DNA of 60,072 nt, the filler included, from Hausera hauseri (lineage: Eukaryota): NCBI GenBank assembly GCA_046269625.1. It is 9 parts of 9 records of this genome, joined end to end, with 100 filler letters (N's around TTAATTAATTAA, not from the genome) between each part and the next. Parts side by side here need not be neighbours in the genome. Positions count along the whole stretch, not along the records: positions 55,980 to 60,072 come from JBJURY010766763.1; 8 more parts are not named here. One strand, written 5' to 3'. A program made the translations under genes and the position numbers. Shown in pieces: positions 12,480 through 60,072 of the stretch. Each line of letters begins with the position of its first letter. Within the stretch, counting starts at the first letter, position 1. The notes beneath the pieces were generated by a model. The model had not been told where the DNA came from. It saw only the letters and a program-made list of their open reading frames with translations, and made no database searches.

Positions 12480-14340
12480 NGATTTCCACCTACTTCCTTC
12501 GTATGCTTTTAAGAACTTTCCAAAAGTCGTTATGATTGCAGTCAGTATTGTACTTGAATATCCGGTCAATGTAAATATTTCATACCTATTTATTACTGCT
12601 TGGATGACTGCCTTAATCACTTGTATTAGAAAATATATCCCTAAGAATCCGGATGCACCTTGTCCAAAAATCAAAACTCTTCCCTAATTTTGTAGAGTAT
12701 TTTTGTAGTTACTCGCTGGTAATGGTTTTCTCCGAGCAAGGATTCCAATTTAGATGGATAGCGAGTATCATCTACTGCGGAGGTCATGGCTCGATTCAAC
12801 TCGTGCGTCCGTTGTCGCGGAAAAGCGTGAAATTGTCTGAAGGCTTCAATTTCTTTAAGCCTATATATACCCTTTGATGAGATGTCTTGACATTTGTCGT
12901 CTGTAATTCCTTTTGCAAGATTTTTTCCTGTTAATTTATTTGGAGCGGCAGTGATACCTCCATTTGGCAAACTGACCCAATCTGTTTCACTACGTCTAAA
13001 CATGGGTTCTACTAATCTTGCTTTACAATCCTTAAGAATTGTCGGTTCAGTTGCATTGTCTAATAGCACTCTAGAGAGTGGCATAGCTAACCATGGTAAA
13101 TAAGGGGAAATTCCGGTATGCTGCATTTTTCTTCAACGTTGATTGGTACATTTTTTCCTCACATTCGTAAGTCAATAGGACTTCACCGCTAAATCGATCG
13201 AAGATTCCTTCTCTCACAGGATTTATTGGGGATGCCAACTCGGGATTAGCGTAAACATGAGCCAGTTTTGTCCTCATGGTTTCCATATCCAATTTACAAT
13301 AGTTTGTTATCATTTTATGATATAACGCGTTTATTCAAACTGGCTCTTTGCAATAGAAATAATCGTCTCTGGTCTTCAGATAATCCTCAATTCAAATATC
13401 CTGCGTTTCCAGTTTGTAAGTCTTTGCATTTATTTCTGTTTCTGCGACAAAGAACGTTTCATAGTTGGTAGAGAACATCACTAGTTCACAACGAGAAACC
13501 ATTTCTTTCTCAATAAATTTCAGCCAATGCTGGTCAGAGATTAATGTACTAGACGTATGATGTTCTGATATATCTTCGCGTGTCCTTGAGTTGGTATCAG
13601 ATTTATCCCCATATCGCTTTCCGATATTTTCACTAAACTTTAATTCCTTAATATTGATAAAATTACAGCTTCTTCCAGGGGGAGTTTCCCATATTATAAC
13701 AGAACCTCTAAAAGCACAGGTTCCGTCTTGTAAATGGCATTTTTGATTTTCCTTATATACTTTGGTGACACTATAGAACATTACTTTCTGTGCTCACATC
13801 TCAGATTCATAGAAATCCACGACTACTACGTTTGCTTTTAATCCTTTTCCGGTGTAGTATTCCGCTCCGTTACAATGTCCGTTATGCATGTCTAACCTTC
13901 CGACCACTACCTTGTATGCCCTAATTATCTTTCCTGGTTGCATTTCCAATTCCATACTGTCCCATTGTACTCTTCCGGTCTCCTTAGCCTGTTTGCAGTA
14001 CAGGCGTTCTAAGTTCATCGGAATTAAAGGAGTTGTTGGATTGATTATTGAAGAATGTCCGTGTATTAATCCACAGTGAAAAATGCTTCGAGATCGTCTC
14101 AGCATACATTCCATTCCATCTAATGATATCAATTCTTGTTGTTGGTGCAGAAAATAATTTTCTCTCTCGTTTCTAACTTGTGCGGCATGGTATCTTCGCC
14201 CACTTCCAAATCCATTAGGTAATATCTCTGCCCTAGTTTAAACTTATCGCAGTTGTAGACGGCAACAGGGTCTATGTGCTTTATTAGCATCATCAAGGTG
14301 AGTAAGCTGATTAGCCAATTTGATTCGTTTTTCCGGTTAT
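12480..14340 (-). pseudogene. Chuvirus-like (class III fusion) envelope glycoprotein, copy A
   Basis: Signal-like WLISLLTLMMLI then VAVYNC; FHCGLIHGHSS; CHLQDGTC..IIWE; SGEVLLTYEC; PLSRVL; KGIY....E.FRQF.AFP; TM region FGQGASGFLGIYFLIQVIK..INRY. Confidence 0.8.
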
Positions 14341-17300
14341 TATTATCGGTTGTTACCAAATTACGTAGCATATCTTCCATCTTATTACTATTACCGAACC
14401 GTTTGTCCTCTTCCTTGTCGAATAGTCTCGACCAATTTACTTCGCAGGGTAGCTTTCTCGCCGGTCTTCGTGCTAAGCTTGTTGCACTATTAATTTCATC
14501 CTCTCGATTAGGATGTACTTTGATAGCTAAGTATAGTAATACTTTTCTTAATTCTTCAGTGGTCTTTTCTACCATGATCTTTTCAATTACCGATTCGTCG
14601 GTTAAGTTACTTTTTGATCGTTTAAAACGTGAACTTTTCATCATTCTAGCTACATTGAATATTGCTATTTGTTTATCATTTAATGTGTCATCTCGAAGGC
14701 TTAAATAATTTACAATACGTATTAAATTCTTCATTAATTCGTTTTATTCTTCATTGTCTGTGCTGAAAGTAGGAATCGACATTTGTCTCAACTCTCTAAT
14801 CAATTCTCCATTATAACTTCTTCTCGTGTCTTCTTAGGCCTACCGACTGGGCGTTTCTGTCTTGGGACATTGGCTATCATTTCACTCAGCAGCACTAAAT
14901 TCTTGTCGTATTGTTCCTTGTCCTCATCCGTTTGTAAATACTCGAAATACATTGCAGCATCTCGGACTCCCATGATTTGTTCTACGCATTGTTCCGTCTT
15001 GGCCTTACGCGTGGCTTCTCCTTTAGTTTGTTCATTGGCTACTATTATTACTATTCGATTTGTTTCGTTGGAAATAATCCCTACATCTATTAATTGTTCT
15101 AAATCGTCGAGTATTTCACCTCTAAAGTAAAATCTCTAATTTAGCTCATTTGTTCCGCCATTATTTAATAACCATTCTCTTACGTCCCTTACATAAGAAT
15201 ATGTAGTTATCTCACATTCTTTTTCGTCCATCTACTCGGATGATACCATTTCCTTATCAGAAGTTTCGGCACCATGGTATAAATTGTATTCTCACTATAT
15301 AATTTAGTTAAGGTCGGAATAAGTTGTCTTAACTTACTCTCAGTAATGTTTACGTTAATTAGTTGAATTACATTTTTTCCAGTTAGCGCTGAATCCAGGA
15401 GCATCTCCAAATTGAATCTCCTATTCTGTGGACATGTTTCTATTTCATTCAGTTGTACTGGAGTCACGGGATTTTCGGCCCTTATCGCATCTAAGTACGC
15501 ATCCCATTCCGATTCATTTCCAACATCTAGAAGTCCATAATCTATTAAGGCTATATTTGTTTTTTGCACATTTTCTCAAATTTCTTTCAATCTTGGTTGT
15601 ATTTTTTTCATCTGCGTAGTTCGAAAGCCTATTCCGTTTCCGCAGGCATACTGAATCATTTTCAGTAATTCGCCTAATTCATTAGAATTGATGAATTCCT
15701 TTTGGTAATAATCAGTTAGCTCAATAATTGCATCTCTCTGCCATCTTTGCACAAATTCTCGCTTATTTTTGATCTCTGATTCGGTAAAAGCATATTTGTT
15801 TCGGTAGATTTCGAGTTCTTTTACTAATTCATCTAACCTCGTTGCTCTTTGTTTTGTCTTAATACACGTTTCTTTAACCTGTCTTATTTTAGGCATAAAT
15901 TGTCACATCTTCTCATCATTAATCTCTGCCGTTTCTACTAATAGGAAGGCTAACTCATACATCTCATTTATGACCTTTGAGTCGGGATCCATTGCATCCC
16001 ACAATTTCTTTATGAACTTAGATTTTTCGAGACTAAGATGTTGGTTGTTTCTTATTTTTGTTAACTCGGTATGGCAATTCTGATCTGTTCCGGCCATCCA
16101 TTCTTGTGGTTTATGCAAGAATTTTATTGCTTCCGCTAAAGCTGCTCTATGTTCTGGACAAATATCTAGGGTTTCGATATCCTGGAATAAAATCTCGTCG
16201 ATAGGTATATATGTTAAATGTTGGACTCCTTCTAGTCGGATATTCCTTAATCTTGTACAGAAAGCGCAAGTCATATTTCTTTTTGTTGTGAAGTTTGTTT
16301 CTTCGATCATTTTATAAATTTCTTTCAGTATCGTCGTTTCTTCTTCTTCTTTATAAAATTTAGTCGTTATAAAGCTTCGAATTGCGTTCGGATATCTATT
16401 TCTGCTTGTAGTGTATCTAAATTACGTGCATTTTCTTTTAATTGCCCTTTTATAGATAGTTCGCTTTCTGGAAATTCTTTCTTACAGTCTTCTAATAATT
16501 TGCTTAGTCTCATTATTAATCCGGACCATTCCGACAATTGATTAGCGATTATTGGCTTTGCCAATATAGTTTTGTCTAGCATCTTATATGCATCCTTTAA
16601 TTCATCGTCTAGAGATTTTATGAAATTCGTAATCCGGCTGACATAACTAAATTCATCTTCATATTCATCAAATTCTATTATACAAGCTTATACTACGTAT
16701 TCTCTTTCTTCGTTGTTTGGAGACATAATTCGGTTTCTCAAACTATAAATTTGTGTGCGCTTTTCATTTTCCATTTTGATTTGATTCTCTAGGTTCGTAT
16801 ATTGTTTAGGTACAGCGAAAGCGATTTCTATCATTTCCATTAAGAGAGAAATATCTACTGGGTCTATACCCAATATTTCTAAATCGATATTATTTCGATT
16901 GCTAACCGGTTTTTCTCTAAGCCGATTAATCATTGCACAGCGAATTTCGTCCATCATACGCTCTAAATTACGGACTACTCTTTTCAGTTTCGAATTTGCT
17001 TCTAAGGTAGACAGTAGCGTCTGAGCTTTAGCAACTTTTACATCAACACTATTTTCATTTTTGCTCCATTCTTCCGAGAATTCAACTCCATTTTTAATCC
17101 ACGATTCCAATTCACGTTTCCATTTTATTAACGTTTTAGATGATACCTCTTCTGGTTGTCCTAAGTCGATTGCTTCATCAAGCTTTTCTTCACTACATAA
17201 ATTTAAACTTTTATATAATCTCTCAGCAAATTGTTGCTCCCTACCGAATATATCTACTTGTTCGCTAATCTGTTTAAGCCTTTCTGAATTTCGTTGTAAC

Positions 17301-17646
17301 ATTTCTGGATCGTGACATCTAATTCACATTTTCTTTAGTTCATCGGCGTTTTTCCTCAAACATCGAACTTTCCACTTTCACGGATCAAAATCATCAATAT
17401 TTTGCGTCTCTTAGTCACTAGTGGAAAGTGAGCAAACCTTGTTAATTTCATTAATGGACTCTACAGGTTCTTTTACCTTGATAGGTGTAAATTGACCAAT
17501 TTCTGATGTATTTAAGCTAGGCTCTACGTCTATGTCTACAGCGATGTTTATATTTTTCGTTTCTTCTATTTTCTCTCTAGTTACTTACGAACGTGATCGA
17601 TTTCTACGTTTCGTCTTTAATGAAGGGGTGCGGCCTCTATTTTTCG
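14341..17646 (-). pseudogene. Very long (~1100 codons, 5'-truncated) charged, coiled-coil-like ORF in gag position, running into the glycoprotein
   Basis: ORFs 16688-17302, 16367-16582, 15903-16310, 15576-15896, 15207-15569 and 14129-14734 abut across single stops or frameshifts; no canonical CCHC knuckle seen. Confidence 0.65.
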
Positions 17647-19929: not shown

Positions 19930-22046
19930 AACTATCGTTAAATGACTTTTACATATTTCTCACCAAGAATTGTACTTATTCCCATCTAATTCCTCTTTTA
20001 AATACATCAAATATTTCTTGATTTGATATCAATTCTAATTCTATTTTTGTTTGGTATAAACCTAAACTCCATGTTAATCCCGGTGTTGAAACAAAATAAC
20101 AAGGGTCGAGGGGAATCAAACTTCTAAATTTTATGATACAGTCACGTAGTAAAAAATATCTTGTTTTAAATATAAAATTGTGTATTCTAAATGATTTTTA
20201 CAATTAAATGTTCTATAAACCTGCTTATATCTCTCATATTCTTGATCAGAAATATTTGAATTATTTAACCTACTATAAAATGCTTCTTTAGGAAGTATTT
20301 CTGTTTCATAATATTTCTCAAAATTATTAAAATAATCATAAGGATAAACCCCTTTTTTCTTAACAAAAGATGCAAAAAATCGGAATTTTCTTGCTCAGTT
20401 TTTGTTAATAATTTTAAATATACATTATCTTCTGGTGAAAGAGATTTTGCAACATCAGCCAACGCACCTGATAAAAATCTGAAACTATCAACAAATTTAT
20501 AAAAATTATCAAATACCATAGAAATATAAGTTTCATCTGTTTTTGGAATAATTTTAATATCTTTTTCATATTTTGCTAATTCTTTAATAATTAAATGAAA
20601 ATCATATCTACTTCCATTATGAAAAAATATTGGAATTTCTTTTTTTATTTTCGCATTAATATTACATTCATTATGTGCTGGTCCTCTATATTTTCCGTTG
20701 TAATGATCATGGTCTAATACTTTTTCAGATTCAATATTTTGTTCACAATAATAGCAAATATTATTTGATTTATATTCATCGATTTCTTTTTTTGTGATAT
20801 TTACAGGATTATTTTTTTTCAAAGCTTTCAAAAATCTTTCTTTATTTTCAACCAACCATTTTACAAAATCTTTTACTGCTTCATTTTCTCCTATGAATAA
20901 TTTTTCTTCCTCTTGAATTAAATCCGGATAATTTGAAATAATTTTTACAAAAATTAATGTTGGTATTTGTTTTGATCTGATAAATGTTTTTTCATTTTCA
21001 TTATTAGCATAAAATACTTCTTCATTTATGCATTCAATATCTGCAACCATGATAAATGGTAATTTTAATTTATAAGAATAATTTGTGAATTTTAATATTT
21101 CTCCTTTTTTGGGAAATATATATTTCGTTGGTTCATTATCAATGCACAACTTTTTATGATTATCAATTGCGTTTTTATTAATGAAATAACTTAGACATTT
21201 TTCACAAATAAATATTTCTTCATCATGTCTTAAATTATAACCTAATTCAACCGATAAATAAGATTTTAAATTTTTTATCCACATAAAATGTTCTTCATAA
21301 TATAATAAATTAATTGATTTGGCAAAATTCTTTTTAGAACTATGATATATTGGAAGAGTTTTGTATGATTTTCTTTCGTTTTTATTTTTTCCTTTAATGT
21401 ATTCTAAATAATATACATTAATTTTTAAATTGTTTTTATTTTCAAAATTGTTTATTTTATTTATTTGCATTGGAAATTCAACCCCTTTCAAATTCAGATT
21501 ATTTTCAAATGGTTTATATTTTGAAACTCTTTGTGGATTTTCATCAGCTTGATATAAACATGATAGTACTGCCCATAGAAAACATTTTTCATCTTTATTT
21601 TTCACATTTACAATATTATTTGAAGCAAATGGCAACTTTTTAAAAGATTTTCCCATTAAAACATTTATTTTATTCGTATGGAGTGTTAAAAAAGAAAATG
21701 AAACAATTACCCAATTTGATTTAACTAATCTATCATTAATTTCTTCAAATTCTTTTATAAGAGATTGAAATAATGAATTTATATTAATTCGTGAATAAGG
21801 TGAATTTAAATTTTCTGGTTGTGAAAGAATTTTAAATGTTCTAATTTCTTTATCTTTAATATTTTTCATTTTAACATATACAGATAATGTAAATTTAATT
21901 GCTGTTTCAACATTTTTAATTTTATCAATAATATCATATTTAAATAAAATGAGGTATTATTCTATACTATATATTAAGAACTCTTTTTTGGAAATAACTA
22001 AATCATTTGAAATATTTTTTAAATTGTTTTCAGAATTTGTTTCCAT
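19930..22046 (-). pseudogene. Polinton-type protein-primed DNA polymerase B, AT-rich family; N-terminal/exonuclease half with an endonuclease VII-like insert, 3'-truncated
   Basis: NVKNKDEKCFLWAV, HFMWIK, CEKC, ADIEC (exo I), CYYC..VLDHDHYNGKYRGPAHNECN, FHNGSRYDFH (exo II); after a frameshift KGFYPYDY, YLKQD and LDPCYFVSTPGLTW. In-frame ATG at 22046 with one stop before 21869. Confidence 0.9.
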
Positions 22047-22147
22047 TTTTTAACCCCACTTTTTCTTTTATAAAACTTTATTTCCATTTTTAAAACACCC
22101 CCAAAAATATGCACTACCAAATATTGTGAAAAAATGTGCACGTAATA

Positions 22148-22289
22148 AGTAGATAGTAGAACCACTAAATGAAATAGCGAAGCAAAGCGTAGTGTTAGTT
22201 CAATTTTTTATATTTTTTCTAACGATCGGTAAGCAGTCAGAAAAAATATAAAAGTGAGGTGTTTTCATTTACTGGTTCTACTATCTACT
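22148..22289. repeat. 142-nt fold-back palindrome at the apparent element terminus
   Basis: 27-bp inverted repeat 22148-22174/22263-22289 (1 mismatch) enclosing a perfect 15-bp inverted repeat 22206-22220/22239-22253. Confidence 0.9.
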
Positions 22290-22866
22290 ATCCGACTGAG
22301 CCTGCCATGTCTGCCTGTGTTAGGTTGACCACTATGTCGTCCAGATCTTGTGTGTCGACTACCCATTTAAATGAACCTTACGGCAAGGGTTGCGAAAGCT
22401 CCCAGCCTTACAGGTTATTAATATCAATATACAGCAGTGATGTGATATCTGTAGCACTGACCTTATGCTTGTTGACAAATATCATGCTGCCGCGAATACC
22501 AACATCAAACAGCCTGTACAATTCCGGGTCTTGCAGCAGCTCAATGTTTAGATCCAGTGACATTAGAGCTGACGCCAAACTCATTCCCGATATGGAATAA
22601 AAGTTGAATGGCTGCAACCTACCTTCCGCCAGCACTTGGGTCAGAAATGCTTGAAACACGTCGGCTAATAAGTAGACGTTCAGTTTAAGATATTGGAGCA
22701 TGTAATCCAAAATGTTTCTACAGCCCAATTCTGTCGAAGATTCTTGTGCTCTCCGATATTCATCTTTTGTATATTTGTCCATGGCGGTGGTAATTGCTCT
22801 ACTGTCCGGAATCGCTCATATAATGTTGCCAAGTCATATGAAAATATGCATTTGCTACGTGAAATA
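22290..22866 (-). pseudogene. Polinton-type PolB fragment (exo III to motif A), same family as 52343-55879
   Basis: QYLKLNVYLLADVFQAF, GIRG, LLYIDINNL*GW, PLP..F.WV; collinear with ~53480-54000. Confidence 0.85.
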
Positions 22867-37127: not shown

Positions 37128-38858
37128 AATATTCCGATATGAATCATTTCGTTCTCGTAAGGAAAAAGAATCGTATTCCCATACTTCAGTTGATGACCAC
37201 AAAAGTGACTATAGAAAAAGAAAGCGTTCTGATTCGGCTTCAAAACGATCAAGATATGATCGCCATCGGGATTCGAGTACAGGTACCATTATTATTTTCT
37301 CCGTTTGATTTTATAGTTTGTAGAAAAATACGACAAAAAGCAAGACAGTAAATATAAAAGTAGTTACAAAAAATCCAAAAATTCCGATCATGCCCAAGAC
37401 GAAAGTTATTACAAAAGTTCCAAAAAGTATGATGATACTAGTAGAGTAAAAAAATACAGCGAATCCAGTGAAAGCAGTCATAGTAATGATAAAGGTAGCA
37501 CAAAGGAGAAAAAGAAATACTACAAATATAAAGATAGTTACTCGTCGGATGATTCAAATTATAGAAAAAATAGAACGGACAGAGATCGCAACAAAGATAA
37601 AAAACTGAAAAAGAAGTCAAAGAAATCCGACAAAGATAAGAAAAAACGTAAGAAACATCGGCATTCATCGGAAGACGAAGAAGAAATGGAGAAAAAATTA
37701 AAAAGCAACAAAAATGAAAAAGTGGAAAGATCGAAGAAAGAACCACAAACGAAAGTCGAACCGTTCAAAGTGAAAGAACAAAGTAATTTGAAAAGTCATA
37801 TAAACATGACTCAATCGGATATTTTTGTAAAGTATGATTGGCAAAAAACGAATGCTGAGAGAGAAGTTAAATTGAAGGACCTGACCGTAGAATCACGCAG
37901 CAAATCAAAGGAAAATAAAGTTGACGAGAAGAAAATAAAAGTAGAGGAGGATGTGAGTAGCATTATTCGGAAACGCAAAGTTGATGAAGAGAAAGAACAC
38001 GCCGATCGAAAACGAGTCAGGAAGCCAGAGAAAGCAAAACCAATAAAAAAGGAAGCCGAGGATAGCATTAAAAAAAGTCCGAAAGTGCATCATGAGTCGG
38101 CCAGCAGACGTGAACGATCTCGATCTCCATGCCGACTCGTTGAAAAGTCTGAGAAAGACAAAGTCAAATCTAGAGATCGTCGAAGTTCTCATCGGAGTGT
38201 TGATGATAAGAAGAAATTCGAAGAGGATTTCGATGACGAACGATTGGAATTGCCTCGGACGCCGACCGATGCCCAGTTTACCGGTTTATTTGCCAGACTG
38301 CACGAGGAAAGTGTTTCTGAAACTGAAATTGAGGATATTTTACCACCGATTCTTCTCGATGATCAGATGAAAACTCTACTGGAGAATGATCCAAACGCCA
38401 CACAAGAAGCATGGGATTCTGAGGATGACGTGCTACTCAACAAGCGGGAAAATGTGCTTACACCGAAACATCGTGGAATTCTAGAAACACTGTCAGTTCC
38501 ATGGCAAAATTTAATCGAAGAAACATCGCTCAACCAGAAAATTTTGGTAAGTTTATTTTGCTTATACGTTAAATACATGACACAGGAGAAAAATCAGGGA
38601 CTGAAACGGTATGACGTTGCAAATGTGTTCAACAACGTGGGTCTCAGCAAGGCATTCTGCTGCGGCGTGTTGTTTGGTCGCATTCAAACAGATTTCAACA
38701 TATCTTTTCTCAGTCCGATAGCGCCTATCCATTAACTTCTCATGTCCCAGAAATTTCGCCGTCGGAATATTTTTAGTGAGCGCGGCGTACTTGTGGGTGC
38801 ACTGTCGGCCAGGAAGGACATTCTCATTCGGAAAGTCCTCAATCAACCAGTTGTGTGA
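37128..38858 (+). CDS. ZC3H13: ZC3H13/Flacc-like m6A writer-complex subunit, 3' part; introns 37283-37323 and 38547-38585; in-frame TAA at 38733-38735
   Basis: Long R/K/S/D/E-rich region, then VPWQNL...RYDVANVFNNVGLSKAF..LF.RI...RRRNIF..G....ALSARKD..IRK.L, matching the ZC3H13 C-terminal domain as recalled; both introns restore or keep the frame. Confidence 0.72.
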
Positions 38859-41464: not shown

Positions 41465-44400
41465 CCGCTTGACATTTCAGGTTCATCAAAATTGTCGTTC
41501 ACCTTACCAAAATTTCAGTCGGCACAGCAATCCTAGGTTCGGATTTCTTATATCACTATAATCTTTTAGTTGATTGAAGACAACAATGTCTGAAACGTAA
41601 CACTACTGGATATCTTACCGAGCGAATAGATAGTATATCCTCTATGGTACAAACGATCTTCCCGCGGAAGCCTGTGCTCAAAAATTCTGTAGGTAATCCA
41701 AACTTCTTCAACAAGCCTTTTTCATTTCGTAAATTTTTTAATGATAATATTGATATTCAGTCGAGATTTGGTTTTGACAACTACGATTGCGTTGCTTTGG
41801 TATATTTACTAGACAAAATTACTTCTTCAAACATTATTTTTAAAACTACTATCCTACACCAAATTTTCCTTAATTTCAATAACTCGCAAACATTACTCGT
41901 CACTGAACATATTGACTCAACACCATCACCATCACCCAATCTCTCGCAATTGCCTGCAAGTCTACGGCAATACACACACACTTCATTCCCCCACCTAATC
42001 CAGAAGGACCGAACTTTCACACCTACAAACAGCACTTTTCATCACAACATAACGCAACAGCAAAGACCTATTCGTCAAAATATACGTCTATTTTCACCTC
42101 GTCGTAGACAAGCTGTCGAAGCGGAATTTCTAGACCTTGAACGCTCCGGCATTGTACGCAGATCTAAATCGCCGTGGCCTTCGCCTTTACTCGTTGTCCA
42201 AAAAACGATGGATCCTTCCGATCATGCGGTGATTACCGTCAGCTAAACACTAACTGTTATGGATGCATATCCTTTACCATTAATTAAGTATATCCTGTAC
42301 CGATTGAATTCCACTACAATATATTCAACCATAGACTTAGCCAAGGCATACCATCAAATTCCTGTAGCACCCGAGGACATCGAGAAAATTGCCGTTACGA
42401 CACCTTTCTGCCTGTACGAATACATTTATATGTCTTTTGGATTACGCAGCGCAGCGCAGACTTTCCAACGTCACATCGATTCCACCCTCTCGGATTTCAC
42501 TTTCGCGCATCCATATATCGACGATATCTTGACTGCTTTGTCTTCAACCAAACAGCATGAGAAACACATTAGTTCTATTTTCTAACGACTTAACCACCAT
42601 AATTTACAAATTAATTTTACGAAATGTCACATCTTCTAAAAGCGTATTAACTTTCTCGGACATATCATTTTAGCAAATGGTCATTCTGCTCAGCCAGAAC
42701 GTGTTGAAGCTTTTAAAAGTATACAACTACCTCGAACAACAACAGAAATGAGGAGCTTTTGGGGAACTTTGCACTTCGTTTGCAAGTATGTGCCGCACTG
42801 CTCTAAACTTACCGCATCATTTGCTCACTTAAGCGGCGGCAAAAAACATCAGCCAATCCAGTGGACACCTGACTTAATTGATAAGTTTGATAAGCTACTC
42901 GAAGGAATTAAAACCGTCGACATTCTTGCTTTCCCCAGGCCTGATGCAGAACTCATCCTTACTACAGAGGCTTCAACCACCGCGGTGGGTGCTGTGTTTC
43001 ACGAAATACACAAAGGAGACAATCAACCGCTAGAATTTTTTTCTCGTAAGCTAACATCCCCTGAAACTAGATATTCAACGTTCGACGAGAATTATTGGCC
43101 ATCATACTCGCTTTAAAGCATTTCTCCCACCTACTTGTCGCGCGCTGTTTTACCATACAGACCGATCACAAGCCCTTGCTAAACATCATGGCTATGAAAC
43201 ATCCTATCTCACACCAAGAACGACAGATATCATATCTGTAGACATTTAACTTCGACATAAAACATGTTAACGGGATTAATAATTTGGTTGACGATTTCTT
43301 ATTTAGGACTGTTGGTTCGATTAATTTTCACCAATTTTCACTTAAGTACAACTCCAACAGAACCAGCCACCTCAGGACATGCTTAATTCTTTTAAATCTT
43401 GCATAGTTGTTGACGGCGTGGCTTTATACACTTCCAAACCGAGTCATTCCGTAATAATTCTCATACCATCTTTACAACGGCAAGTGTTTAACAGTGTACA
43501 TTCGCCGTACCATTCTGGCACTAAGACCACTTTTCGTTTACTCCACCGACAGGTAATTTGGCTGTCAATGCGTTCTGATGTGCAAGCGTGGGTTAAGGAG
43601 TGCGTGGCTTGACAGAAATTTAAAATCACCAAACATTTGAAACCATCACTATATCATTTCCCTTGCACATCACGTTTCGAGTCTGTTCATGTTGATCTCG
43701 TTGGCTCTCTTCGTCCTGACAACGGTCGTCAGTTCATTTGGACAATGATGGATTGTTCCTCACGTTGGCCTGAAGCTGTCCCCCTACGGAGCACTAACAC
43801 GGATACAATAGCCGACGTTTTCATACACACTTGGATCAGCAGATTTGGATCCCCCAGATTCATTATTGCGGACTAAGGTACTCAGTTTGAGTCCAATTTG
43901 TTTAAATCTCTCTTTAATCGATTAGGAATCAGCCATATACACACATCACAGTATCACCCCCAATCGAATGGTCTTCTAGAGATATTTCACAGAACACTAA
44001 AAACTTCACTGAGAATCCTCCAGAATCCAATAGCAGTTGGACTACTCTTCTTCCGTTGGATTTTCTGGGTTGGCGTAACATCCCTTCTACTTCCACTGGT
44101 TGTTCACCTACGGAAGCCCTCTTCGAAACACTTGTACATTCATTATTTGAGTTAAATGCCTTGGAAAATAGATCTACAGATGAAGCTATCCGAACGGCAC
44201 AATATTACTTTGTCTCAGTCAGTAAAGATTTATTCTGCAGAATAATACATAACAATAAAACGTATCTAACCGACGATTTATATTCTGCAAAGTTAGTCTG
44301 GCTGAAAAACCAGACGCCATGCGGTTTGCAACCACGGTATTTGGGGCCCTACAAACTCGTAGAATTACATTCCCACAATTCCATTATTTCTAAAGACGGT

Positions 44401-44820
44401 AAGGAACTAGCGGTGCATATCAACAACGTAAAGCCTGCTTTTTTCGCAGATGATACCCCCAAATTAAATCCACCTCTATTTTTACTTCTCTACCAGAACC
44501 TCCTCCAAGCTTCAATTCTACTACCCTAACAACTTTTACTTTCTCTTCTCCTACATCTTATCCTCCATCTCCTTCTCCTTCCTTATACGACACAACACCT
44601 AACACAACCAAACTCAATTTTGTTGTATCTCAATCACCTGAACAAACAGGTTCAAAGACATTGAAAATTTACAAATCAGTCACATTTAGTCCTACTTTAA
44701 GGAGATTAACACTGCAGGAGTACAACGTCTTACCCGCACAAAGACCATTTAGAATGCCTGCACCGTTTCTACCCATTTTTTTACTTTCTTACCTGTCTAG
44801 TCTTTGCTTTGCCACGGGCG
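41465..44820 (+). mobile_element. Ty3/Gypsy pol, decayed; same family as 5020-7830
   Basis: ILGSDFL, DAYPLP, YIDD, TDHKPL, VHVDLVG, YHPQSNGL, LQPRYLGPY; collinear with the first copy. Confidence 0.95.
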
Positions 44821-45942: not shown

Positions 45943-48900
45943 TATATGCCCTACATGTGAGATAGTATGCCAAACCAATTATGAAGACTTTTACAATGCC
46001 CATAAGCAATACCTGATTTCCTTAACCAAGTCACTTCTATGCCTAAACAAAATCAAAGATGCAGTTCATACGTGTATTGCACATGTGCAATACGCAACCC
46101 TTAGAACTGTCATAATACTATGAGGAGCTATTATGGATACAAATTCAACAGGATCCTCTATTATATTTGTCCAGGATGTGGGGCTGTTGGAGAATACATG
46201 CAGTTTTACGAAGATTATATTGCCCATTTCACAGACTTTAAGTCAAAGTCAAAAAAGGTCATCTTTAATGAGCAGCAGCCTGCTTCGGCAGCACAGACTG
46301 TTTCAGCAGCACACCCAGTTGTACAGCCTGCTTCGACAGCAAGGCCCAATGCAAGACTAAAACGCATAGCAGCAGCAGTAGAAGATGCTCCATCTAAAAG
46401 CCAAAGATAGGGGCCAGTTGATGCTGTAACATTAAAAAAATGCTTTAAGTATGTTATTGATGCAACTGGTCAAACAACTCTTCAAGACTTCCTCTTATAC
46501 GCAAAGGACAAGACAGAGGGAATTCTTCAGGACAACGTGGATGAGCTCAAAGCCCTTAAGGTGAATATGAAACTGGAGGCCACATACATCAATGTTGATG
46601 GCGAAAAATTAAATAGGGCCTCCAAGACTAAAAATAGGCCCATATTGGAAAACACCAATAGAGTAGAATGGCTGCAAGAGGCACACGAGAAGCTGATCCG
46701 TGAAGCCGAGGAAAGCCGCGATAAGAAGAGCTAATGGACTCTGGCAACCATCAAGAGATTGTGTGTGTATGTTCACAAGTACTTCCCAATACGAGGTAGT
46801 TCATATATTCAGTACCCTGATTAGATCGTTAATAAAAAGTATGCATCAATGTCCATAATAGCGACAACATGTGTTTCATCAATGCTATTCTATCAAAACT
46901 CGTAACGATCAAAATCATGCTTCGCAAGTTTTGCTATATAAGGATATGGAGCACTGCTATGACTTCCAATGTTTCACATTCCCTCCATTCATAGATGAAG
47001 TCAAAAATTTAGAAAAGTCAACAACATGTCCATCAATATCTTGGGATTGGATGAAGAGGACAAATTCTGTCCCCTGAACATATGTGATACTAAATTGGAA
47101 GATCATAGGGATCTGCTCATACTAGACGATGGAGAAACGAAACATTATGTTTGGATCAAAGACTTTGAGCGGTTAGTAAGATCACAAATTACAAAATATC
47201 ATAGACAAATAGAAATATGTAAACGATGCTTGTCCCGTTTCAGCGGCGATGCAGCGGTATTGAAACTTTCAGAGCCCAAGATGTACTGCACCAACAATTA
47301 TTGTATAAGGCCAGAATTTCCCAAGGAGGATTACATTAAATTCAAGGAGTTCGAGACGATCAGGGTACCAATAGTCATATATTGCGACTTTGAAGCGATC
47401 TTGCGTCAAGTTCAGAGTTGCAGTCCCAATCCCCAACACAGCAACATAAAAGGATACCAATATCATGAGCTTTCATCATATTGCACGTATGCCAAATGAG
47501 AGGACAGTGGACCATATCTATTCAAAGTGCCAAATGCAGCAGTTCATTTCATGAAACGACTTGAAGATATCGCTCATAGGCTTGGAGATATAGTGCGGCA
47601 TAAGGATACAATGAGCATGCCGAAGAAGCAAGAAGAAGAATGGCAACAGCATGTTACCTGTGCTCCAAATCATTCACTAAGCAGAATCATAAAGTCAGGG
47701 ATCACTGCCATTTCACAGGCACATATCGAGGCGCGACATGCAACAACTGCCATCTACGCTGAAAAACATGTACATATGTGCCTGTAGTGTTCCATAGCCT
47801 TAGTGGCTATGATTCCCATTTTTTGTTCGGGGACTGGGAACATTGAAGGAAACATTGATGTGATCCCAGTGAGTAGAACTATATCACATTTAAAAAGTAT
47901 GTTGGGAAAATCAGGCTTCACGTCGTAGACAGCTTTGTTTCATGTCGTTTTCACTTGACAGTTTAGTGAAGAACCTCCTTCAGAAGAACTCAAGGAGACG
48001 AAGCGGTTCTTCCTCACGATATTTGACCTTGTTAAAAGGAAATGCGTGTTTTCCTTTGACTATATAACATCATGGGAAACACTGGATGAGACCTCATTGC
48101 CGGCTAAGAAGGAAATTTGCAATATCCTCTCATATAGAAATATCAGTGATGCTGACTACCAGCATGCTCCGAATATTTGCATGCATTCTAATGCCTAACA
48201 TTAGCAGAATACAACAACCTATATTTCAAGACGGACGTGCTGCTTCTGACAGATGTTTTTGAGAGTTTCAGGGATGTTACGATGAAGAGCCATGCACTGG
48301 ATCCGGCTCATTTCTTTACGGCTCCAGGGATAAGCTGGGCAAATATGCTGAGATATACAGATGTCCGGCTGCAGATCATAAAGGATTACGACATGATCGT
48401 CATGATCGAGAGAGGCATTAAAATGGAATATACCAGGCCATTCACCGGTATAGCAAGGGCAACAATAAGTATATGGCCCAGTATTATCCATCCAAGGAAT
48501 CCTCATATATCATATCTGGATGCCAACAACCTATATGGATGGGCTATATGCCCATTACCATATGACGACTTCAAGTGGGTCGCATATCCCGAAAACATCC
48601 CTATACTGGATCTGGATCACAGTGGAGATACGGGCTACATATTGGAGGTGGATATGGAATATCTGGCTTCTATCTACGCAAGGTATCTACAGCTACCTTT
48701 CTTCCCTGAGAGCAAGACTCCGCCCCCTGGAAAGCATAGAAAGCTGCTTTGCCATCTGGATAGTGGGGAGAGGTATGTAGATCCATCGGGCCCTGCAGTT
48801 CAGCCAGTCCAACTGGCTGCAGCCCTGCATAGATCTCAATACCAAGCTGCGGACAAATGCCAAGAACGACTTTGAGAAGGACCAGTTCATGCTGTACAAC

Positions 48901-49651
48901 AGCAGCGTTTTTGGCAAGACCATGGATAGTATCCGCAACAGGATCAACATCAAACTGGTCTCTAAGTGGAAGCGGGCAAAGAACTTCATTGCCAATTCCA
49001 ACTTCCACAGCAGTACCATATATGCGGAGAACTTGGTCAGCATCCATGTTCTGAAAACATCATTACAATTTAACAAGCTCATATATGTGGGTATGGCAAT
49101 ACTGGACCTGTCAAAGACCTTGATGTACAAATTTCACTATGACATCATGGCCCCCACATTCAAGTTCGTACAGCTAATGTATATGGATACTGATAGTTTC
49201 ATCTATCACATCCATACAGAGGACATTTATGAGGACTTTGCTCAGTTGGCAGAGCATATGGATACCTCGGACTATCCGAAGGATCATCCCAACTATTCAA
49301 TTGCCAGCAAAAAAGGTCCTTGGGAAATTCAAAGACGAGGTGAATGGGGCAATAATATCGAGATTTGTGGCTCTCAGATCAAAAATGAATGTCCTAGACG
49401 TATGTTGCTAAATAAAGAAGCGGACAAAAGGAGTTCAAAGGACTGCATTGACCAAGATCAGTTTTCAAGACTATGTGAGGGTTCTGCAGTAGCAGACTCA
49501 CATTATATCGGAAATAAAAAGGATCCAATCTAGGGATCATAACATCCAAACAGTAACAATTCATAAAAAAAGCCTAGATTGGATGGACAACAAGAGGCAG
49601 ATCCTGAGCGATGGAATTTACAAATTACCTCATGGACATGTGGCATTGTAA
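45943..49651 (+). pseudogene. Near full-length Polinton-type protein-primed PolB with many frameshifts
   Basis: HYVWIKDF, YCDFEA, VRDHCHFTGTYRG, SGYDSH, TDVLLLTDVFESFR, YLDANNLYGW, NSSVFGKTM, YMDTDS, DNKRQI..LPHGH; AATAAA at ~49685. Confidence 0.93.
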
Positions 49652-52342: not shown

Positions 52343-55300
52343 TCATTTCAAACGCCAATGCCCATACGTCCAACTCTTATTTCGGCCCACCCACTTTCGC
52401 TTATCATCATTACATGACAGCGATTTTTGTGTTTGTTATAGTATACAGCTAGTGCTCAATCGATCGTATGGTCGTTTGACACAGCCATTGATTTTCCTTT
52501 TTGTCGTCCTCCGTCTTCTACTGCTGCTTCATAGATACGGCGATAATCACCGTGGCTTATTTCCATCTTGAACAGCTGAACAACTTTTGTGCGCATTTTC
52601 GATCCACGCTCCGTCAGGAGACTGTAGCACTTTGGGCGCAGGAATATCCATTCTCGGTACTGAACACCGCCTTCGCTTTCATCCTTGAAGCAGCCGATTT
52701 TGTTCGTGATGGCGTAGCTATACAGCGGATAATTCTGTGGGTAATGGAACGTCCAGTAATCCATCTGCCATCACTTACCGGAGCAGTTGGTCGCGATTGA
52801 CGTTTTTCAGCTCAAGGGAAAAGCTGTCTGTGTCACCAGCAACGATACTGATATCAGCCGTCGAACATTTTCCGGTAACGTGCCAAGTCGCGATACTGGA
52901 GCTCGTACATTCGCAACTTGCTCAGGTTCAATACCACTTGTCCGATATAGCTTAGTCGGTCCAGTACGACTTCTTCCCTGTTTAACAGCATGGCGATCAA
53001 ACTATCGACAATATACATTGACCGCCTGAACTGAGCCTTGCTGGTGTACGTAACCAGCCACTTTTCGTTGTTACATAGGCGCACATTGAGACGCTTTTCG
53101 AGGTTCTCTGCTGTTTTGACGAAGAGAATTATTTTTCAACTTGTAGCAGTCCTTTTCGAACTTTGTACAAGCTGCGGCTCGTTTTTCTGAATTTCCGTCA
53201 AATTATGCCTTTAATATCGGCGCCTGATTGAATTTGATTGCGCGATGCAGCTGTATGACGCGTACACCGAGCTGCATGTAGAACTGTAGCAGACGTCAAT
53301 GAAGCACGTAATTCGACTTCGGTTCATGCGTCATGAGGAGTTTCTTCACCTTTGAATCTCCAAACGGACATTGGCTGATTGGTGCGACAGGTAATTGGTC
53401 CAAAGCGTCATGCAACTCATCCGGTACCACGAGATCAACTTCCATCACGTAGCCCAATGAACGGTTTTCTGCAGTCTACGTCGGTAAATTTTGCAATATT
53501 GCCTCCAGATCTTGCTTGTCCGTTAACCATTCAAATGAACCGTACAACAAGGGTTGCGAAAGCGCCTAGCCGTACAAGTTAATGTCAATGTACAGCAGTG
53601 ATGTGGTGTTACCATCACTGGTTACGTGGTGCTTGTTGACAAATGTCGTGCCGCCACGAATAGCAACATGAAACAGTCGGTACATTTCTGGGTCTTGTGA
53701 CATCTCAATGTCCCGGCCCAATGTGACGCCCAACTCATTCCCGGTATGGAGTAAAAGTTTAGCAGCTCCAGCCTATCGTCCGCCAACGCCTTAGTCCGAA
53801 ATGTCTGAAACACGTTGGCCAGCAAGTACACGTCCAGTTTCAGATACTGGAACATGTAATCCAATAGGCTTCTGCAGCCGAGCTCTAACAAAGATTCCTG
53901 TGCTCTGCAATATTCATCTTCTGTTATACTCGGCCACTGCGGCGGCAATTCCTCTGTTGTCTGAAGCCGCTCGTCATACGAGAATATGCCTTTGCTAGGT
54001 GCAATATGCATCGGAAACTACGTTGATGTTAACGGCACATCCGGCAAGGCATTTACCAGCTTTGCTAGACTCATCAGGGAACTGTAATGAGTCGTGGAAT
54101 CGCACCTGGAACCGGTTTATGCGTGCCGGCAGAGACAAGTATTTCTCCATCGTTGCTGGGATTATGGATAGTTCCCAGTGTGGAAATCCATTAATGACCC
54201 ATGTCAGATTACGGTGACAATCATAATCCCTGAAGATATGAAATATCACTGGCAGGAATGGCCGCACACGCCGTGCTAAATTGCATGAATTTCATGCTGC
54301 TCCCATGTATCATCCGGTAAAGTGGTCGTGATCAGGTACGAGCCGTTCCTGTTTAGCGAATGTTAATATTTTGCGGCACAGGTAGCATTTATCTGTGACT
54401 GAGAACGTAAGGCGTTCGTCTTCGTCTGTCCAGATCAAAGGCTTAGTGCTGTTGTTATTACCACGGTGCGATTTCCGCTTCAACTATTGCCTCCAACTGG
54501 TGCAGGAAATCACGTACACAGTTCCATCTGTGGAAAACGTAATACTTCCGCTGTCCGGTGGCTTTTATTGGTACTAGAAACATACCGACAGTGATTGAAA
54601 TGTGCTTTTGGTAATATATGTTGTGCCGCGGTAGAATTGCTTCAATATCGGCATAGACCACATATGCCGCATTGTCCATTTTCGACCAGTCACTGAATCT
54701 CAGCTCCTTTTTGACGAGGATGACGTACATTGTTGTTCCCGATAAGTTTCGTCTGAATAGCGCCACGTGTTTTCCCATTTCGCTTCTCATCTGAAGCTAT
54801 GCAAACATATAGGACACCGTTTACAGCGTATTTGTTTTTGGATGAAATGGTCATGGTCCAAGTTCAACATTCTGTCCAGATGTTACGGCCACGTAATGAA
54901 AATTTTCTGCCTGCTCCAACAGCAACAGGTATATTGGACGTCAGTTCGAGCTCCGACTTTGATAGATTATGTCCACGTGAGGATTCTTGTAAATTTCCTC
55001 ATCTGCCGGTATCTCTATTACTGAGTTGTACCGAAAAACGTTGATTGACAGTGTCGGATTACGCCGTTCAAAAGCCGGAATGGTTTTGAGTTTCATCTGC
55101 ATCGAGTTTTCATCAAAGTTCAATTCGGAAAAATACTGACGATGTCTTTTTGAACGATTTGCACGATTTCTGGGCACTTTGTCAAATTTTAATAAGGCTA
55201 AAATACTATAAAGAAAACAGTATTCGTCGCTATTATTTTCTACATTCACTACAGTTTTAGAGTGCTTTAAGGCTGTAAGTGTCGGTATGAATGATCTCCT

Positions 55301-55879
55301 CGACAAGTAAATCGTGTCACTCGACTTTTTAATGATAAAACTGAGAGTGACAATCTTTAAAATTCGCCATTCACTACCATTTTCCGTGTAGTTGACGATT
55401 TTCTCCTCGAACTTTTCGCCAATCTCAGCGATAAAATCCTCGGTATATGGTACAGCTCGATGTGACAGGTACCGTTGTTTCCTGTCGCTTTGCACGTTTT
55501 CGAATTCTGCAAGTGCATAATACTGCACTTTGCAGTGGTGGTGTTGGAATTTGTCCACTTCAGATTCCAACCGGTTTCGCACAATGGATGGAACATGTCT
55601 TAATTGCGTTGTTGTCGCTGACATGTTCACTTTTATATCCACGTACGATTTTTTCAGATCGTACTTGACAGTAATGCGTGGTTCCTCCCTCTGTTGCTCC
55701 TGTTCCTGCTGCTGCTGCTCCTTCTGCTGTTTTTGATTTCTGTTGTTTTGCAAGTATTCGTCAAGGCCTGTTGATGCCTCACGTTTCCTACTTGTTGAGG
55801 GAATACTGTTTCTGCTGCTGCTGATTTTTCTGCTTCCATTAATATTTGTTTTTTCGACCGCTTAAACTGGTTTAAATGG
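52343..55879 (-). pseudogene. Near full-length Polinton-type protein-primed PolB, decayed, with Q-rich N-terminus
   Basis: YTENGSEW, NVENNSDEYCFLYSI, YADIEA, DHDHFTG, YLKLDVYLL, LLYIDINLYG, KLKNNS, GDTDS, IGCFKDE, LRPKCYS, DDKR..YGHW. Confidence 0.93.
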
Positions 55880-55979: not shown

Positions 55980-57850
55980 CGGTTTCAGTTCCGTCATGTA
56001 ATTTTTCGTTTTCTTTTGCTTGGTCGCACAGACTTCACAAGCATTTACCCAATTCTTTAAATCAATATAAATGCTGGGTCAAAAGTATTTGTTCACTATT
56101 CTTTCTAGTATTTTCTTCCAAAACATGTGTCCTGCCAAATATTAATCGCGTTCCGACATCAAAGCTTCGGTTCGCAATTTTTTCGGAATAACTGTCAATT
56201 TTTTTCCTTTTCGCTCACAATATAGAAGGTTTTAGAGACCTTTGTTGCTCAGAACACAATATTTCTGTGCATGCCTACGTAGATGTTTTTTTAATTTTCG
56301 TCCTTTTGGTATTATGTCCTTCTCGGAAAATTCTATAATCTGCTGGATAATTCTATCCTTTCTTTGTTTGGTTATGATTTTAATCTGTTTATCCAACGTT
56401 AATGCGCGTTAGCGATCTATTGTTTCTTCAAGATGACTTCTCTTCATTACAGTGATTGCACTTGTTTTAGTCTTTAATCTTTATAGCGCAACGGCATCTA
56501 CATGCTTATTTCCTGCCTTATACCGGAATTCGATATTGTGTCTAGAGATTTCTTCAATCCATTTGTTAAGTCTACATTTCGGGTTATTTGCTCGGCCTTT
56601 TAGAGTTGTAACGGCTTTGTGATCTGTGAAGATTATAATTTTCTGGACGTACACGTAAACGTTGAAGTGTTGAAGCGCTTCTTTTACAGCTAGACTTTCT
56701 AATTCAGTAACAGAATCATTTTTCTCGGCTGTTTGAGGATGGCTTTCCATAAGCAATTCTTCACTTTTCTGTGCTAATTCATATCCAGTACCTTCTTTAC
56801 TGGCATCTGCCTTAATTATAAAGTATAAGTTAAAATCTGGGTATTGCAAAACTGATTCACTTGTTAATATCTTCTTCATTTTGTCCAAAGCTTTCTGTTC
56901 GACTCCTGACCATTTCCATTTAAATCCTTTTTTAAGTAGACGATATAGGGGTACAATTATTTTCGTATTGTCTGGCACATAAGTGGCATAATATCCACAT
57001 AGACCTAGCCAATGCCTTAAATCCTTCTGTTTTTGTGGCTCCATGCAATCTGAGATTTTGTTCAATAATGATTTATCTGGTTTTGATCCTCCTTCTCCAA
57101 CTATATGGCCAAGGTAGGATACTGAATTTTGAGCCCATTTACATTTTTTCGGATTTAATTTTAATCCGGCCTGTTCCAGTCAAATCAGCGTATGTTCAAC
57201 ATCCTTCAAGTCTTCCTGTTCTGTTCTAGACGCTATCATTACGTCATCTAAGTATGCCAAGGCATGATCTAGTTCCATCAACATTTTGTTCATCATTCTC
57301 GTAAAAATGGCTGGCCCGGTAATAATACTGAATGGCATAACATTAAATTCATAGACGCCATCATGTGTCTTAAACGCTGTTTTATATCGATCTTCATCTT
57401 CGATTTTTACTTGCCAATATCTCGATTGTAAATCCAGAGTGGTAAATTATTTCGCTCCTGAGAGTCTGTCTACAGCCTCTTTTACTGATGGCAATGGGAA
57501 GGAATCTTTCATCATAAGATTATTTAATTCTCTGTATTCAATACAGAATCGATGTTTAGTAGTACCTTTCTTTTTAACCATGAGGACTGATTAATACCAA
57601 GATCTATAGCGGGGCCTAATTATATCGACCTTAAGCATTCGTTCAACCTCCTCTGTTATCTCGGGTCTCAGTGAATGAGGTGGAGGATACCATTTCGCCA
57701 TCTTCTGATCCTCAATATCTATTTCTTCATTTGAACCAGGCTTTTTCTTTAGCGGGGTAGTAAATTTCAATGCTTTTGCCCTACCAATATCCTCGTCGTC
57801 CTTAGCAATAATCGATTTATAGCGACATAATAATTCATAAAAATGACAGT
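55980..57850 (-). mobile_element. Ty3/Gypsy pol (RT, RNase H, integrase zinc finger) of env-carrying element copy B
   Basis: ELLCRYKSIIA..DIG linker, KDSFPLP, TTLDLQSRYWQV, YEFNVMPF, AYLDD (~57250), ADAS, TDHKA, and GHM..CEVC. Confidence 0.93.
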
Positions 57851-57989
57851 AAGATTCTCTCGTCCCTTAGACTTGTCATCATCTCAGTTATTTCTTCGCG
57901 TATTAGGTTTTGCGAATTTCCGCTTGTACAAGAATATAGGTTTTCCTTTTTTCTTTGCAATTATGATAACCGACGTGACGTTCTACGTC

Positions 57990-59870
57990 CGATTTCCATC
58001 TATCCTCTTTGTATGCTTTCAAGAACTTTCCAAAAGGCATTATGATTGCAGTCAGTATTTTACATGAAAATCCGGTCAATGGAAATATTTCATACCCATT
58101 TATTTCTGCTTGGATGACGGCCTTAATCATTTGTATTAGAAATATATTGATAAAAATCCATATGTAGCTTGTCCAAAAATCAAAAATCTTCCCCAAATTT
58201 TGTGGCGTATTTCTGTGGTCACTCGTTGGTAATGGTTTACAACAAGCAAGGATTCCCATTTAGCTTGATATCGAGTATCATTCACTCTGGAGGCCATGGC
58301 TCAATTTAATTCGTGTGTTCGCTGTCGCGGAAAGGCGAAAAATTGTCTGAAGGCTTCAATTTCCTTAGGCCTATATATGCCCTTTGACGAGGTGTCTTGA
58401 AATTTATCGTCGGTAATTCCTTTTGCGAGATTTGTTCCCCTTAGTTTATTTTGAGCGACAATAATACCTCCATTTGGCGAACTAACCCAATCCGTTTCCC
58501 TACACCTGAACATGGTTTCTCCTAAGCTTGCTTTACAATTTTTAAGGATTGTTGGTTCAGTTGCGTTGTCTAACAACACTCTAGTAAGCGGCGTGACTAT
58601 TCTTGGAGTATTCTGATAAATAACGGGGAGTTCTTGTATGCAACGTTTTTCTTCAACGTTGATTGGTATGTCCCTTTTCTCACATTCATAAGTCAATAGG
58701 ACTTCATCGGTAACTCGACCGAAAATTTCTTCTCTCATGGGAATTATTGGCGAGGCTAGCTCAGTGTTAGCTTAAATAAGAGCCAGTTTTGTCCTCATGA
58801 TTTTCATATCTAATTTACAATCATTCGTTATCATTTTATGATATAATTCGGTTATTCCGACTCGTCCTTTGTAATAAAAGTAATCGTCTCGGTTTTTCAG
58901 GTAATCCTTAGTTCGAATGTCCTGCGTTTCTAGCTTGTAAGTTTTCGCATTTGTTTCCATTTCTGAGACGCAAAAGGCTTCATAATTAGTGGCGAACATC
59001 ACCAATTCGCAACGAGAGATCTTTTTTTTCTTAATAAATTTTAGTCCATGCTGGACGGATATTAATATAGTGAGTGTAGGGTGTTCTGCTACGTTCTTAC
59101 GTGTCCTTGAGTTGGTATCGGANNNNNNNNNNTATCTACATATCGTTTTCCGGTAGTTTCTTTAAATTTCAATTCCTTGATTTTGATGAAGTTAAAGTTT
59201 CTTCCAGAAGGAGGTTCCCATATTATAACCGAACTTCTAAAGGCACAGGTTTCGTCCTGTAATTGGCATTTTTGATTTTCGGTATACAATTTGGTGACGC
59301 TATAAAACATTACTTTCTGTACTCGCATCTCTGATTCATAGAAATCTGCGACCACTACGTTTGCTTCTAGTCCTTTTCCGGTGTCACACTCTGCTCCGCT
59401 ACAATATCCATTATTCTTGCCTAGTCTTCCAACAACTACTTTATATGCCCTAATTATCTTTCCTGGTTGCATCTCTAATTCCATACTATCCCATTCTAAT
59501 CTTCCGGTTTCCGTAGCCTGCTTACAATTATGGCGTTCCAAATTCATTTGGATTGGAGAAGTTGTTGGTTTGATTATTGAAAAATGTCCGTGGATTAATC
59601 CACAGTGAAAAATACTACAAGATTTTCTCAGCGTACATTCTATTTCGTCCAACGATATTAATTCTTGCTATTGATATAAGAAGTAATTTTTTTCTCTGGT
59701 TTCTAATTTATGTGGTCTGGCGTCTTCACATACTTCTAAATCCATTAGAGAATATTTCTCTCCTAGTTTAAACTTATCTCAGTCGTAGACGGTCACAGCA
59801 CCTATTTGCTTAATTAGCATCATCAAGGTGAGTAGGCTGATTAACCAATTGGATTCATTTTTCCGGTTAC
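57990..59870 (-). pseudogene. Chuvirus-like envelope glycoprotein, copy B, upstream of pol
   Basis: WLISLLTLMMLIKQIGAVTVYD*, FHCGLIHGH, DEVLLTYEC, CIQELPV, TPLTRVL, KGIY..FPRQR and TM segments; collinear with copy A. Confidence 0.8.
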
Positions 59871-60072
59871 TATTATCTGTCGCTGTCAAATTACCTAACA
59901 TATCCTCGAGTCTATTGCTATTTCCGGACCGTTTGACTTCTTTCTTATCGAATAGTCTCTACCAATTTACTTCACAGGGTAGCTTTCTCGCCGCTCTTCG
60001 TGCTAAGCTTGTAGCTCTATTAATTTCATTCTGTCGATTAGGGTTTATTTTGATAGCTAAGTACATCAATAC

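Follow-up and report, generated by a model that had tools for sequence, protein, structure and literature searches.

An env placed before pol, which the sequence-only reading of the locus studied here had taken to be a novel layout, is already known from planarian Burro (PMC6431247) and from Platyhelminthes errantiviruses (PMC13524379). Burro carries an in-frame env between gag and pol, and its members are described in PMC6431247 as giant (>20 kb) elements with MATH, BIR, ankyrin and dUTPase-like accessory domains. The errantiviruses of flatworms, nematodes and bryozoans described in PMC13524379 carry a gB-type env alone, in the order GAG-ENV-POL, and that source includes nine flatworm elements, from Macrostomum, Prostheceraeus and Schmidtea, and mentions Chuviridae-like glycoproteins located next to a gypsy pol in Platyhelminthes. 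It also describes non-canonical ERVs from nematodes (Sacco et al. 2022), in which env and pol are in flipped order in a metavirus. Anakin elements encode a glycoprotein of the family found here (PF24664), and their pol is of the BEL/Pao and not the Gypsy type (PMC7642597).

The locus compared here with these systems lies in a 60,072-nucleotide stretch of Hausera hauseri DNA (GCA_046269625.1), termed the window. Since the window strings together separate short contigs, joined by N44-12 bp-N44 linkers, its two copies of the element are unlinked: contig B (55980-60072) ends at the window end, and copy A (12001-17646) is a separate contig. The available fragments are 4.1 kb (B) and 5.6 kb (A), both contigs end within coding sequence (B stops at 55980), and each copy has a 10-N gap inside env. 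The host is most likely a free-living flatworm, because in a co-assembled mitochondrial contig AAA stands for Asn where motifs are conserved, and the gene order of that contig differs from the neodermatan order; the mitochondrial code supports the flatworm origin suggested earlier. Scans of the sequence for tRNAs and Rfam families gave no matches.

Contig B encodes, on its minus strand, a Monjiviricetes-type fusion glycoprotein (PF24664) followed by a Ty3/Gypsy RT, RNase H and an integrase zinc finger, confirming the succession that had been read from the sequence (PF24664, RVT_1, RNase H and Integrase_H2C2, in that order). PF24664 is matched collinearly by four pieces of ORF lying between 59667 and 57906 (E values of 3e-9 to 4e-4), over profile stretches 68-208, 261-351, 373-498 and 542-606, and the C-terminal half (58139-59122), with stops read as X, matches at E=4.4e-27. 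The 3′ end of a pre-env polyprotein frame (59848-60072, minus strand), which continues past the end of the window, aligns to A 14320-14542, has a third-position excess and contains a stop at 59961; its frame is that of the env N-terminus. Hydropathy places a hydrophobic, internal signal-like segment (59785-59847, minus strand) directly before the glycoprotein N-terminus, and all 12 relatives listed have the same segment ahead of their [FY]DC motif. The predicted class III (gB/Monjiviricetes-type) ectodomain, assigned from PF24664, phmmer and the fold of copy A, spans 58167-59784 (minus strand) and is broken by stops at 59781, 59670, 58774 and 58303 and by the N gap at 59123-59132. It is followed on the same strand by two hydrophobic segments (58166-58107 and 58088-58038) and a cytoplasmic tail (57863-58166 in all), the frame shifting near 58143 and again near 57950. 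In total, B has five stops and two frameshifts between 60072 and the end of the env tail region, with a further stop at 57886. The motifs that had been quoted as chuviral are readable in one or both copies, but with small deviations and with a stop in B at the Cys of YDC. Two hydrophobic segments at the Env C-terminus allow more than one topology. The gB protein has a membrane-proximal hydrophobic segment, to which one of the segments in B may correspond.

The pol part of contig B, also on the minus strand, comprises a pre-RT linker and Ty3/Gypsy reverse transcriptase with in-frame stops (57099-57857; RVT_1 at about 57578-57099, E=6e-32), RNase H (about 56544-56912), and the N-terminal zinc finger of integrase, which is cut by the contig end (55980-56189; Integrase_H2C2 at about 56189-56013, E=2e-11) and is the one part of the integrase present. 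All three domains lie in one frame on the same strand as env, with eight stops across 629 pol codons, and follow the Ty3/Gypsy order (RVT_1, RT_RNaseH/RT_RNaseH_2, Integrase_H2C2). The 120 matches listed for this pol are RVT_1 plus RT_RNaseH polyproteins, and an env profile run on the 120 proteins listed from the pol search (1102-3145 aa, found by shared words) detected env in none of them.

The junction between the two parts is sharply defined: at 57857-57863 in the A/B alignment, B ceases to resemble copy A and passes into the pre-RT linker. Approximately 50 codons separate the env tail from the pre-RT linker in B, compared with 261-1581 aa containing a protease in six intact relatives. No aspartic protease was detected between env and RT in B, and the junction has no room for one. 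Since a protease is present in six of six intact env-first relatives with RT, its absence from B most likely reflects an internal deletion at the junction. Thus, the ∼300-nt interval between env and RT that had been noted previously is seen in B, but it is not the native spacing, because the intact relatives have their protease-bearing stretch at this position.

Copy A provides an independent view of the same env. Its positions 12348-14542 align with B 57863-60072 at 80.8% identity over 2218 columns. The signal segment, glycoprotein and TM of copy A (12471-14320, minus strand) are broken by stops at 13796, 13394 and 13337 and by frameshifts near 14158, 13154/13097 and 12688. A long ORF had been reported upstream of env in copy A; this description holds for the last 204 codons (14743-14132), which are open and lead, without a change of frame, to the signal segment of env, but the decayed pre-env coding sequence of ∼950 codons further upstream (14744-17584, minus strand) carries at least six stops and three frame changes. 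The latter region has no Gag or CCHC match, no Pfam match above the cut-off, and none to relatives; a Gag may be encoded past the end of the contig. Similarly, the open frame reported past the TM tail amounts to 108 open codons (12072-12395, minus strand) beyond the env tail, ahead of which the frame is broken past the TM. These codons are absent from B and are the probable start of an env-to-protease linker. Neither the A nor the B fragment was found to contain Gag, LTR, PBS or protease.

In frame with env in copy A is a helical segment (14372-14743, minus strand) located where Burro and the relatives found here have a Bcl-2-like domain, to which it bears a weak likeness. Against a five-sequence Bcl-2-like profile it ranks first among 487 window ORF pieces, yet with E=0.14, and 5 of 1000 shuffles reached that score. 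In pairwise comparison it matches P0003 at E=4e-5 among 12. The AlphaFold model of the segment (pLDDT 34) is uninformative as to fold, and an Atlas search with it returned bacterial helical clusters only (0.88-0.90, low recognition), with no lead.

No stop or frameshift is common to A and B. The frame breaks 3′ of the TM at a different site in each copy, and upstream of the signal-like segment env is in frame in both. A potentially infectious element had been suggested earlier; the two copies are pseudogenes that decayed independently. The dN/dS ratio between them, calculated using the frame with fewest stops in each ungapped block, is 0.20 over 711 codons. In their parents, therefore, purifying selection acted on env together with the segment before it.

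The fold of the glycoprotein was assessed using an AlphaFold model of the N-terminal 356 env residues of copy A, a partial ectodomain, built from a 52-row alignment (pLDDT 86.5, pTM 0.57). The model matches those of chu-like and other Monjiviricetes glycoproteins with E=1e-14. Among solved structures, Foldseek matched it to herpesvirus gB (E=1e-6, with a TM-score of about 0.29 and an rmsd of about 17), thogotovirus GP, GP64 and rhabdovirus G, and the PDB entries listed are class III fusogens. The best VIA match has Z=9.2 and an rmsd of 13.8 over 281 aligned residues, with herpes gB at a Z of about 9. TM-scores are low (0.2-0.4) and rmsd values high, which would be expected from a different hinging of the domains. 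The comparison with class III fusogens that had been suggested on sequence grounds is hence borne out by the model, which predicts a class III, gB-type fold for Env, and judged from the same model 'chuvirus-like' is a fair label for that fold. The nearest sequences, however, are retroelement polyproteins. A PDB sequence search with env gave no matches, a word-indexed protein search with an env piece gave none among 254 candidates, and an IMG/VR scan confirmed none of 39 stretches.

Eleven env relatives were found at E<1e-30 (125-197 bits, 492-2855 aa). A Pfam protease follows env in the same ORF in eight of the 11, three of which additionally have RT-RH; two end within or just after env, and one is without a Pfam protease call. 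The full env-PR-RT-RH-IN series occurs in P0153 (4844 aa), P0025 and P0027, and Gag or CCHC precedes env in P0008, P0013, L002, L003 and L004. Three of four related metagenome loci are single open frames of 2693-3703 codons encoding env-PR-RT-RH-IN, and in two of them Gag-like and CCHC parts come first. At the fourth locus the series is Gag-like, CCHC, ubiquitin-like and Bcl-2-like parts, one stop, and then env, which is the Burro order. No terminal repeats were found in these four loci. The relatives also show the Burro accessory set of ubiquitin-like domains, a Bcl-2-like domain just before env, and ankyrin repeats. Identity to the nearest relatives is about 30% for env and 38-41% for RT-RH (30-38% for the lineage overall). 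Other layouts occur among weaker env matches (15 scanned), with env after RNase H in P0022 and after DUF5641 in P0026, the latter of much lower similarity to env (69 bits). Hence, the proposals of a single polyprotein with env before pol, and of a gag-env-pol family, apply at the level of the family, judged from the relatives; neither window copy is open, given the stops and frameshifts, and no Gag was detected in either. Multi-protease polyproteins are also found among the relatives, and a limited literature search found no multi-protease gypsy elements in print.

Placement of the RT was based on the pol of B, searched and treed without env. Among its best single-HSP BLAST matches, P0153 ranks 2 and P0004 ranks 5 of 128. 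The RT trees contain env-first elements without published errantivirus sequences; a 75% identity filter reduced the 127 RT rows to 88, IQ-TREE was run on 34 chosen by hand, and c6 was left out. The RT of B grouped with the env-first set with an SH support of 95 (FastTree, 88 rows), 91.5/83 (IQ-TREE, 34 rows) and 67 (FastTree, 92 rows), the support being lower with more rows, and it was left unplaced by a quick IQ-TREE run. The RT of B is a long branch (1.2-1.3), and support for its grouping is therefore only moderate. The RT phylogeny that had been called for thus gave the env-first grouping in three of four trees, but with support falling to 67 in one of them and no such placement in the fast run. 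In one public sequencing run, 15,170 contig records, most of them 80-95% alike, cover all 30 bins, which shows that the family is large, diverged and high in copy number. The run contains the words at a fraction of 0.37; possibly it is the source sample itself, and it is therefore not independent. Among the sequencing runs listed there was no matching RNA run.

The layout works like that of Burro and of the GAG-ENV-POL errantiviruses, given the modelled fold, the domain order and the Gypsy pol. Burro/GYPSM1 of dugesiid planarians, whose Mononegavirus-like env stands in frame ahead of PR-RT-RH-IN within one long ORF, resembles the family of A and B in the env-first order, a flatworm host, a very high copy number and decaying copies. 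However, Burro has Gag, CCHC, MATH, BIR and ankyrin domains, none of which was detected in the window copies, where Bcl-2-like is detected weakly, the comparison being by description. The GAG-ENV-POL gB-type errantiviruses share with the window copies a Ty3/Gypsy pol and a gB-fold env, as modelled, that lies upstream of pol on the same strand, although those described are intact whereas the window copies are pseudogenes. The nematode ERVs mentioned above likewise have env and pol switched round in a metavirus, in nematode hosts, and reportedly contain a continuous gag-env-pro-pol ORF. In BEL/Pao elements with a chuvirus-derived glycoprotein, env is placed 3′ of pol, and the similarity in sequence is much lower (69 bits for P0026, with its DUF5641). 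Judged by eye alone, the window glycoproteins agree in motifs and in the cysteine spacing of domains I-II with six Schmidtea 'C1a' rows in the supplement of PMC13524379.

Contig B is thus very probably one copy, decayed and with an internal deletion, from a high-copy family of flatworm Ty3/Gypsy elements of the Burro or GAG-ENV-POL gB-type errantivirus kind, with A as a second, independently decayed copy. By analogy with the relatives, the parent would have been one polyprotein with the order (Gag + accessory)-(Bcl-2-like)-Env-protease(s)-RT-RNase H-IN. We propose that a single genomic RNA would be translated as this polyprotein, the cytosolic N-terminal part first, and that the internal signal sequence would then thread Env into the ER, where host signal peptidase would free its N-terminus. 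The TM segment would stop transfer and return the chain to the cytosol, in which RT-RH and IN would be cut away from the Env tail by the aspartic protease(s) of the element. Trimers of Env carried by budding Gag particles could bring about fusion with adjacent cells, such as from soma to stem or germ cells, and cell-to-cell spread toward stem or germ cells would be the likely use of Env. Copy B would later have lost the stretch from tail to protease, ∼0.6-4.6 kb as judged from relatives, leaving its env tail close to the pre-RT linker.

The junction at 57860 could alternatively combine env from one family with pol from an unrelated gypsy element, through nested insertion, recombination or repeat misassembly, in which case B would be uninformative on gene order in its own pol family. 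The abrupt end of likeness to copy A at 57863 and the absence of protease at the junction would fit such a chimera, as would a fragmented assembly with a very abundant repeat, and among the matches listed none of eight contig pieces (15,241 others) spans the junction. The RT placement, moderate and with one of four trees disagreeing, also leaves some room for it. A nested element, however, would bring an LTR and gag and would not start at a pre-RT linker, and no LTR-like sequence or gag lies between the env and pol parts of B. Base composition is common to the two parts (A 0.36-0.39, C 0.15-0.19), compared with A 0.29-0.30 and C 0.25-0.26 in two other gypsy pols in the window, although this test is a weak one in that it does not separate the pol of B from a host gene (distance 0.139). 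Because its RT groups with env-first elements in three of four trees (34-92 gypsy RTs), no LTR or gag intervenes and composition is continuous, a deletion is favoured and a chimera appears improbable; even if one had formed, the env family would stay env-before-pol in its relatives. A protease-less join could also be typical of an amplified non-autonomous subfamily that uses protease from complete copies. Deletion derivatives commonly amplify, and many records cover the junction bin (57761-57897, summed depth 3077), but coverage at its sides is explained by complete copies, no bridging record occurs among the matches listed, and copy A continues differently past env, so we consider this very improbable.

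It is barely credible that B represents a recently endogenised or captured chuvirus glycoprotein merely adjoining gypsy sequence, even though chu-like virus glycoproteins are the best structural matches (E=1e-14) and chuvirus EVEs are described in PMC10084718 as often flanked by gypsy fragments. The nearest env sequences are retroelement polyproteins (up to 197 bits), whereas stand-alone proteins of ∼650 aa reach at most 65 bits, and in both copies env is in frame with, and under joint purifying selection with, the element sequence upstream. A fresh capture is largely refuted by these relatives, by their layouts, and by the frame and selection data. From its sequence relatives, env belongs to an old retroelement lineage.

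Returning to the preferred reading of B as a deleted copy of an env-first gypsy family, a more far-reaching version of it, which we regard as unlikely, is that these copies represent a deeply diverged env-first branch, at very high copy number in a non-parasitic flatworm, that forms a distinct subgroup with intact enveloped members still in the genome. The ∼950-codon pre-env region, which matches no Gag or Burro domain, may then carry different cargo or an unrecognised capsid. Because A and B are both dead, questions of polyprotein processing and of enveloped particles moving between cells are better addressed with the Burro elements of Schmidtea. With the two copies, the env-first gypsy group gains a flatworm family that is both divergent and abundant, and the low dN/dS between them supports the view that an env of predicted class III fold has long been retained under selection.

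Among the relatives of copies A and B, the two decayed Ty3/Gypsy copies of the window with a fusion glycoprotein (env), open reading frames (ORFs) containing several aspartic-protease-like domains are frequent, being found in the database proteins P0153, P0005, P0003, P0008 and P0166 and at the metagenome loci L001 and L002. Of 14 env-first polyproteins, in which env precedes the protease and pol region, 9 contain at least two aspartic-protease-like motifs, with seven in P0153. Some of the domains are located C-terminal of integrase and are followed by a TM-bearing C-terminal extension. No mention of multi-protease gypsy elements was found in a narrow literature search.

Inspection of copy A by eye revealed a GRP-type AT-hook-like motif 5′ of env (position ∼14850, minus strand), which on the same basis is common to P0005, P0006, P0008 and P0153, and a CxxC...CxxH motif further upstream (∼16260-16140, minus strand). 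A second ORF matching RNase_T/DEDD exonucleases lies 3′ of the polyprotein at L001:10617-12104 (E 1.4e-5) and L002:12085-13470 (E 1.1e-3), and is of one kind in both loci. The related polyprotein P0004 is 2627 aa long, has the layout env-PR-RT-RH-IN and is CCHC-like at its N-terminus; it is annotated as a Flavobacteriaceae MAG protein, its source probably being a eukaryotic contig misbinned into that MAG.

The window also contains two decayed copies of a second gypsy family (5034-7700, minus strand; 41578-44529, plus strand), which share 65% identity with one another and ∼29% amino acid identity with the RT of copy B, and in which no env was seen. Three related decayed elements (19979-22866, 46999-49533 and 52857-55861) that we take to be Polinton-like yield an endonuclease VII match (E 1.4e-5) and, on visual inspection, contain motifs resembling those of protein-primed DNA polymerase B. 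An inverted repeat at 731-2234, with arms of ∼460 nt at 76% identity and an inner pair at 1372-1693, is possibly a foldback or MITE-like element. An intact, uninterrupted AMP deaminase ORF of 695 codons (9078-11165, minus strand; E 2e-255) adjoins gypsy pol and is either an intronless gene or a retrocopy. A Pfam search of a 472-codon ORF rich in Lys, Ser, Arg and Glu (37317-38735, plus strand) gave no match.

A near-complete mitochondrial genome (22967-36960) has all genes on one strand in the order nad6-nad5-cob-(2.5 kb gap)-cox3-atp6-nad1-cox2-nad3-nad2-nad4L-nad4-cox1, with gene names assigned by eye; the gap between cob and cox3 likely holds the rRNAs. At the motifs checked, AAA encodes Asn and Lys is always AAG. 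Neodermata have an rRNA-sized gap between cox1 and cox2, whereas the mitochondrial genome described here has none there, and the gap position thus points to a free-living flatworm as the host.
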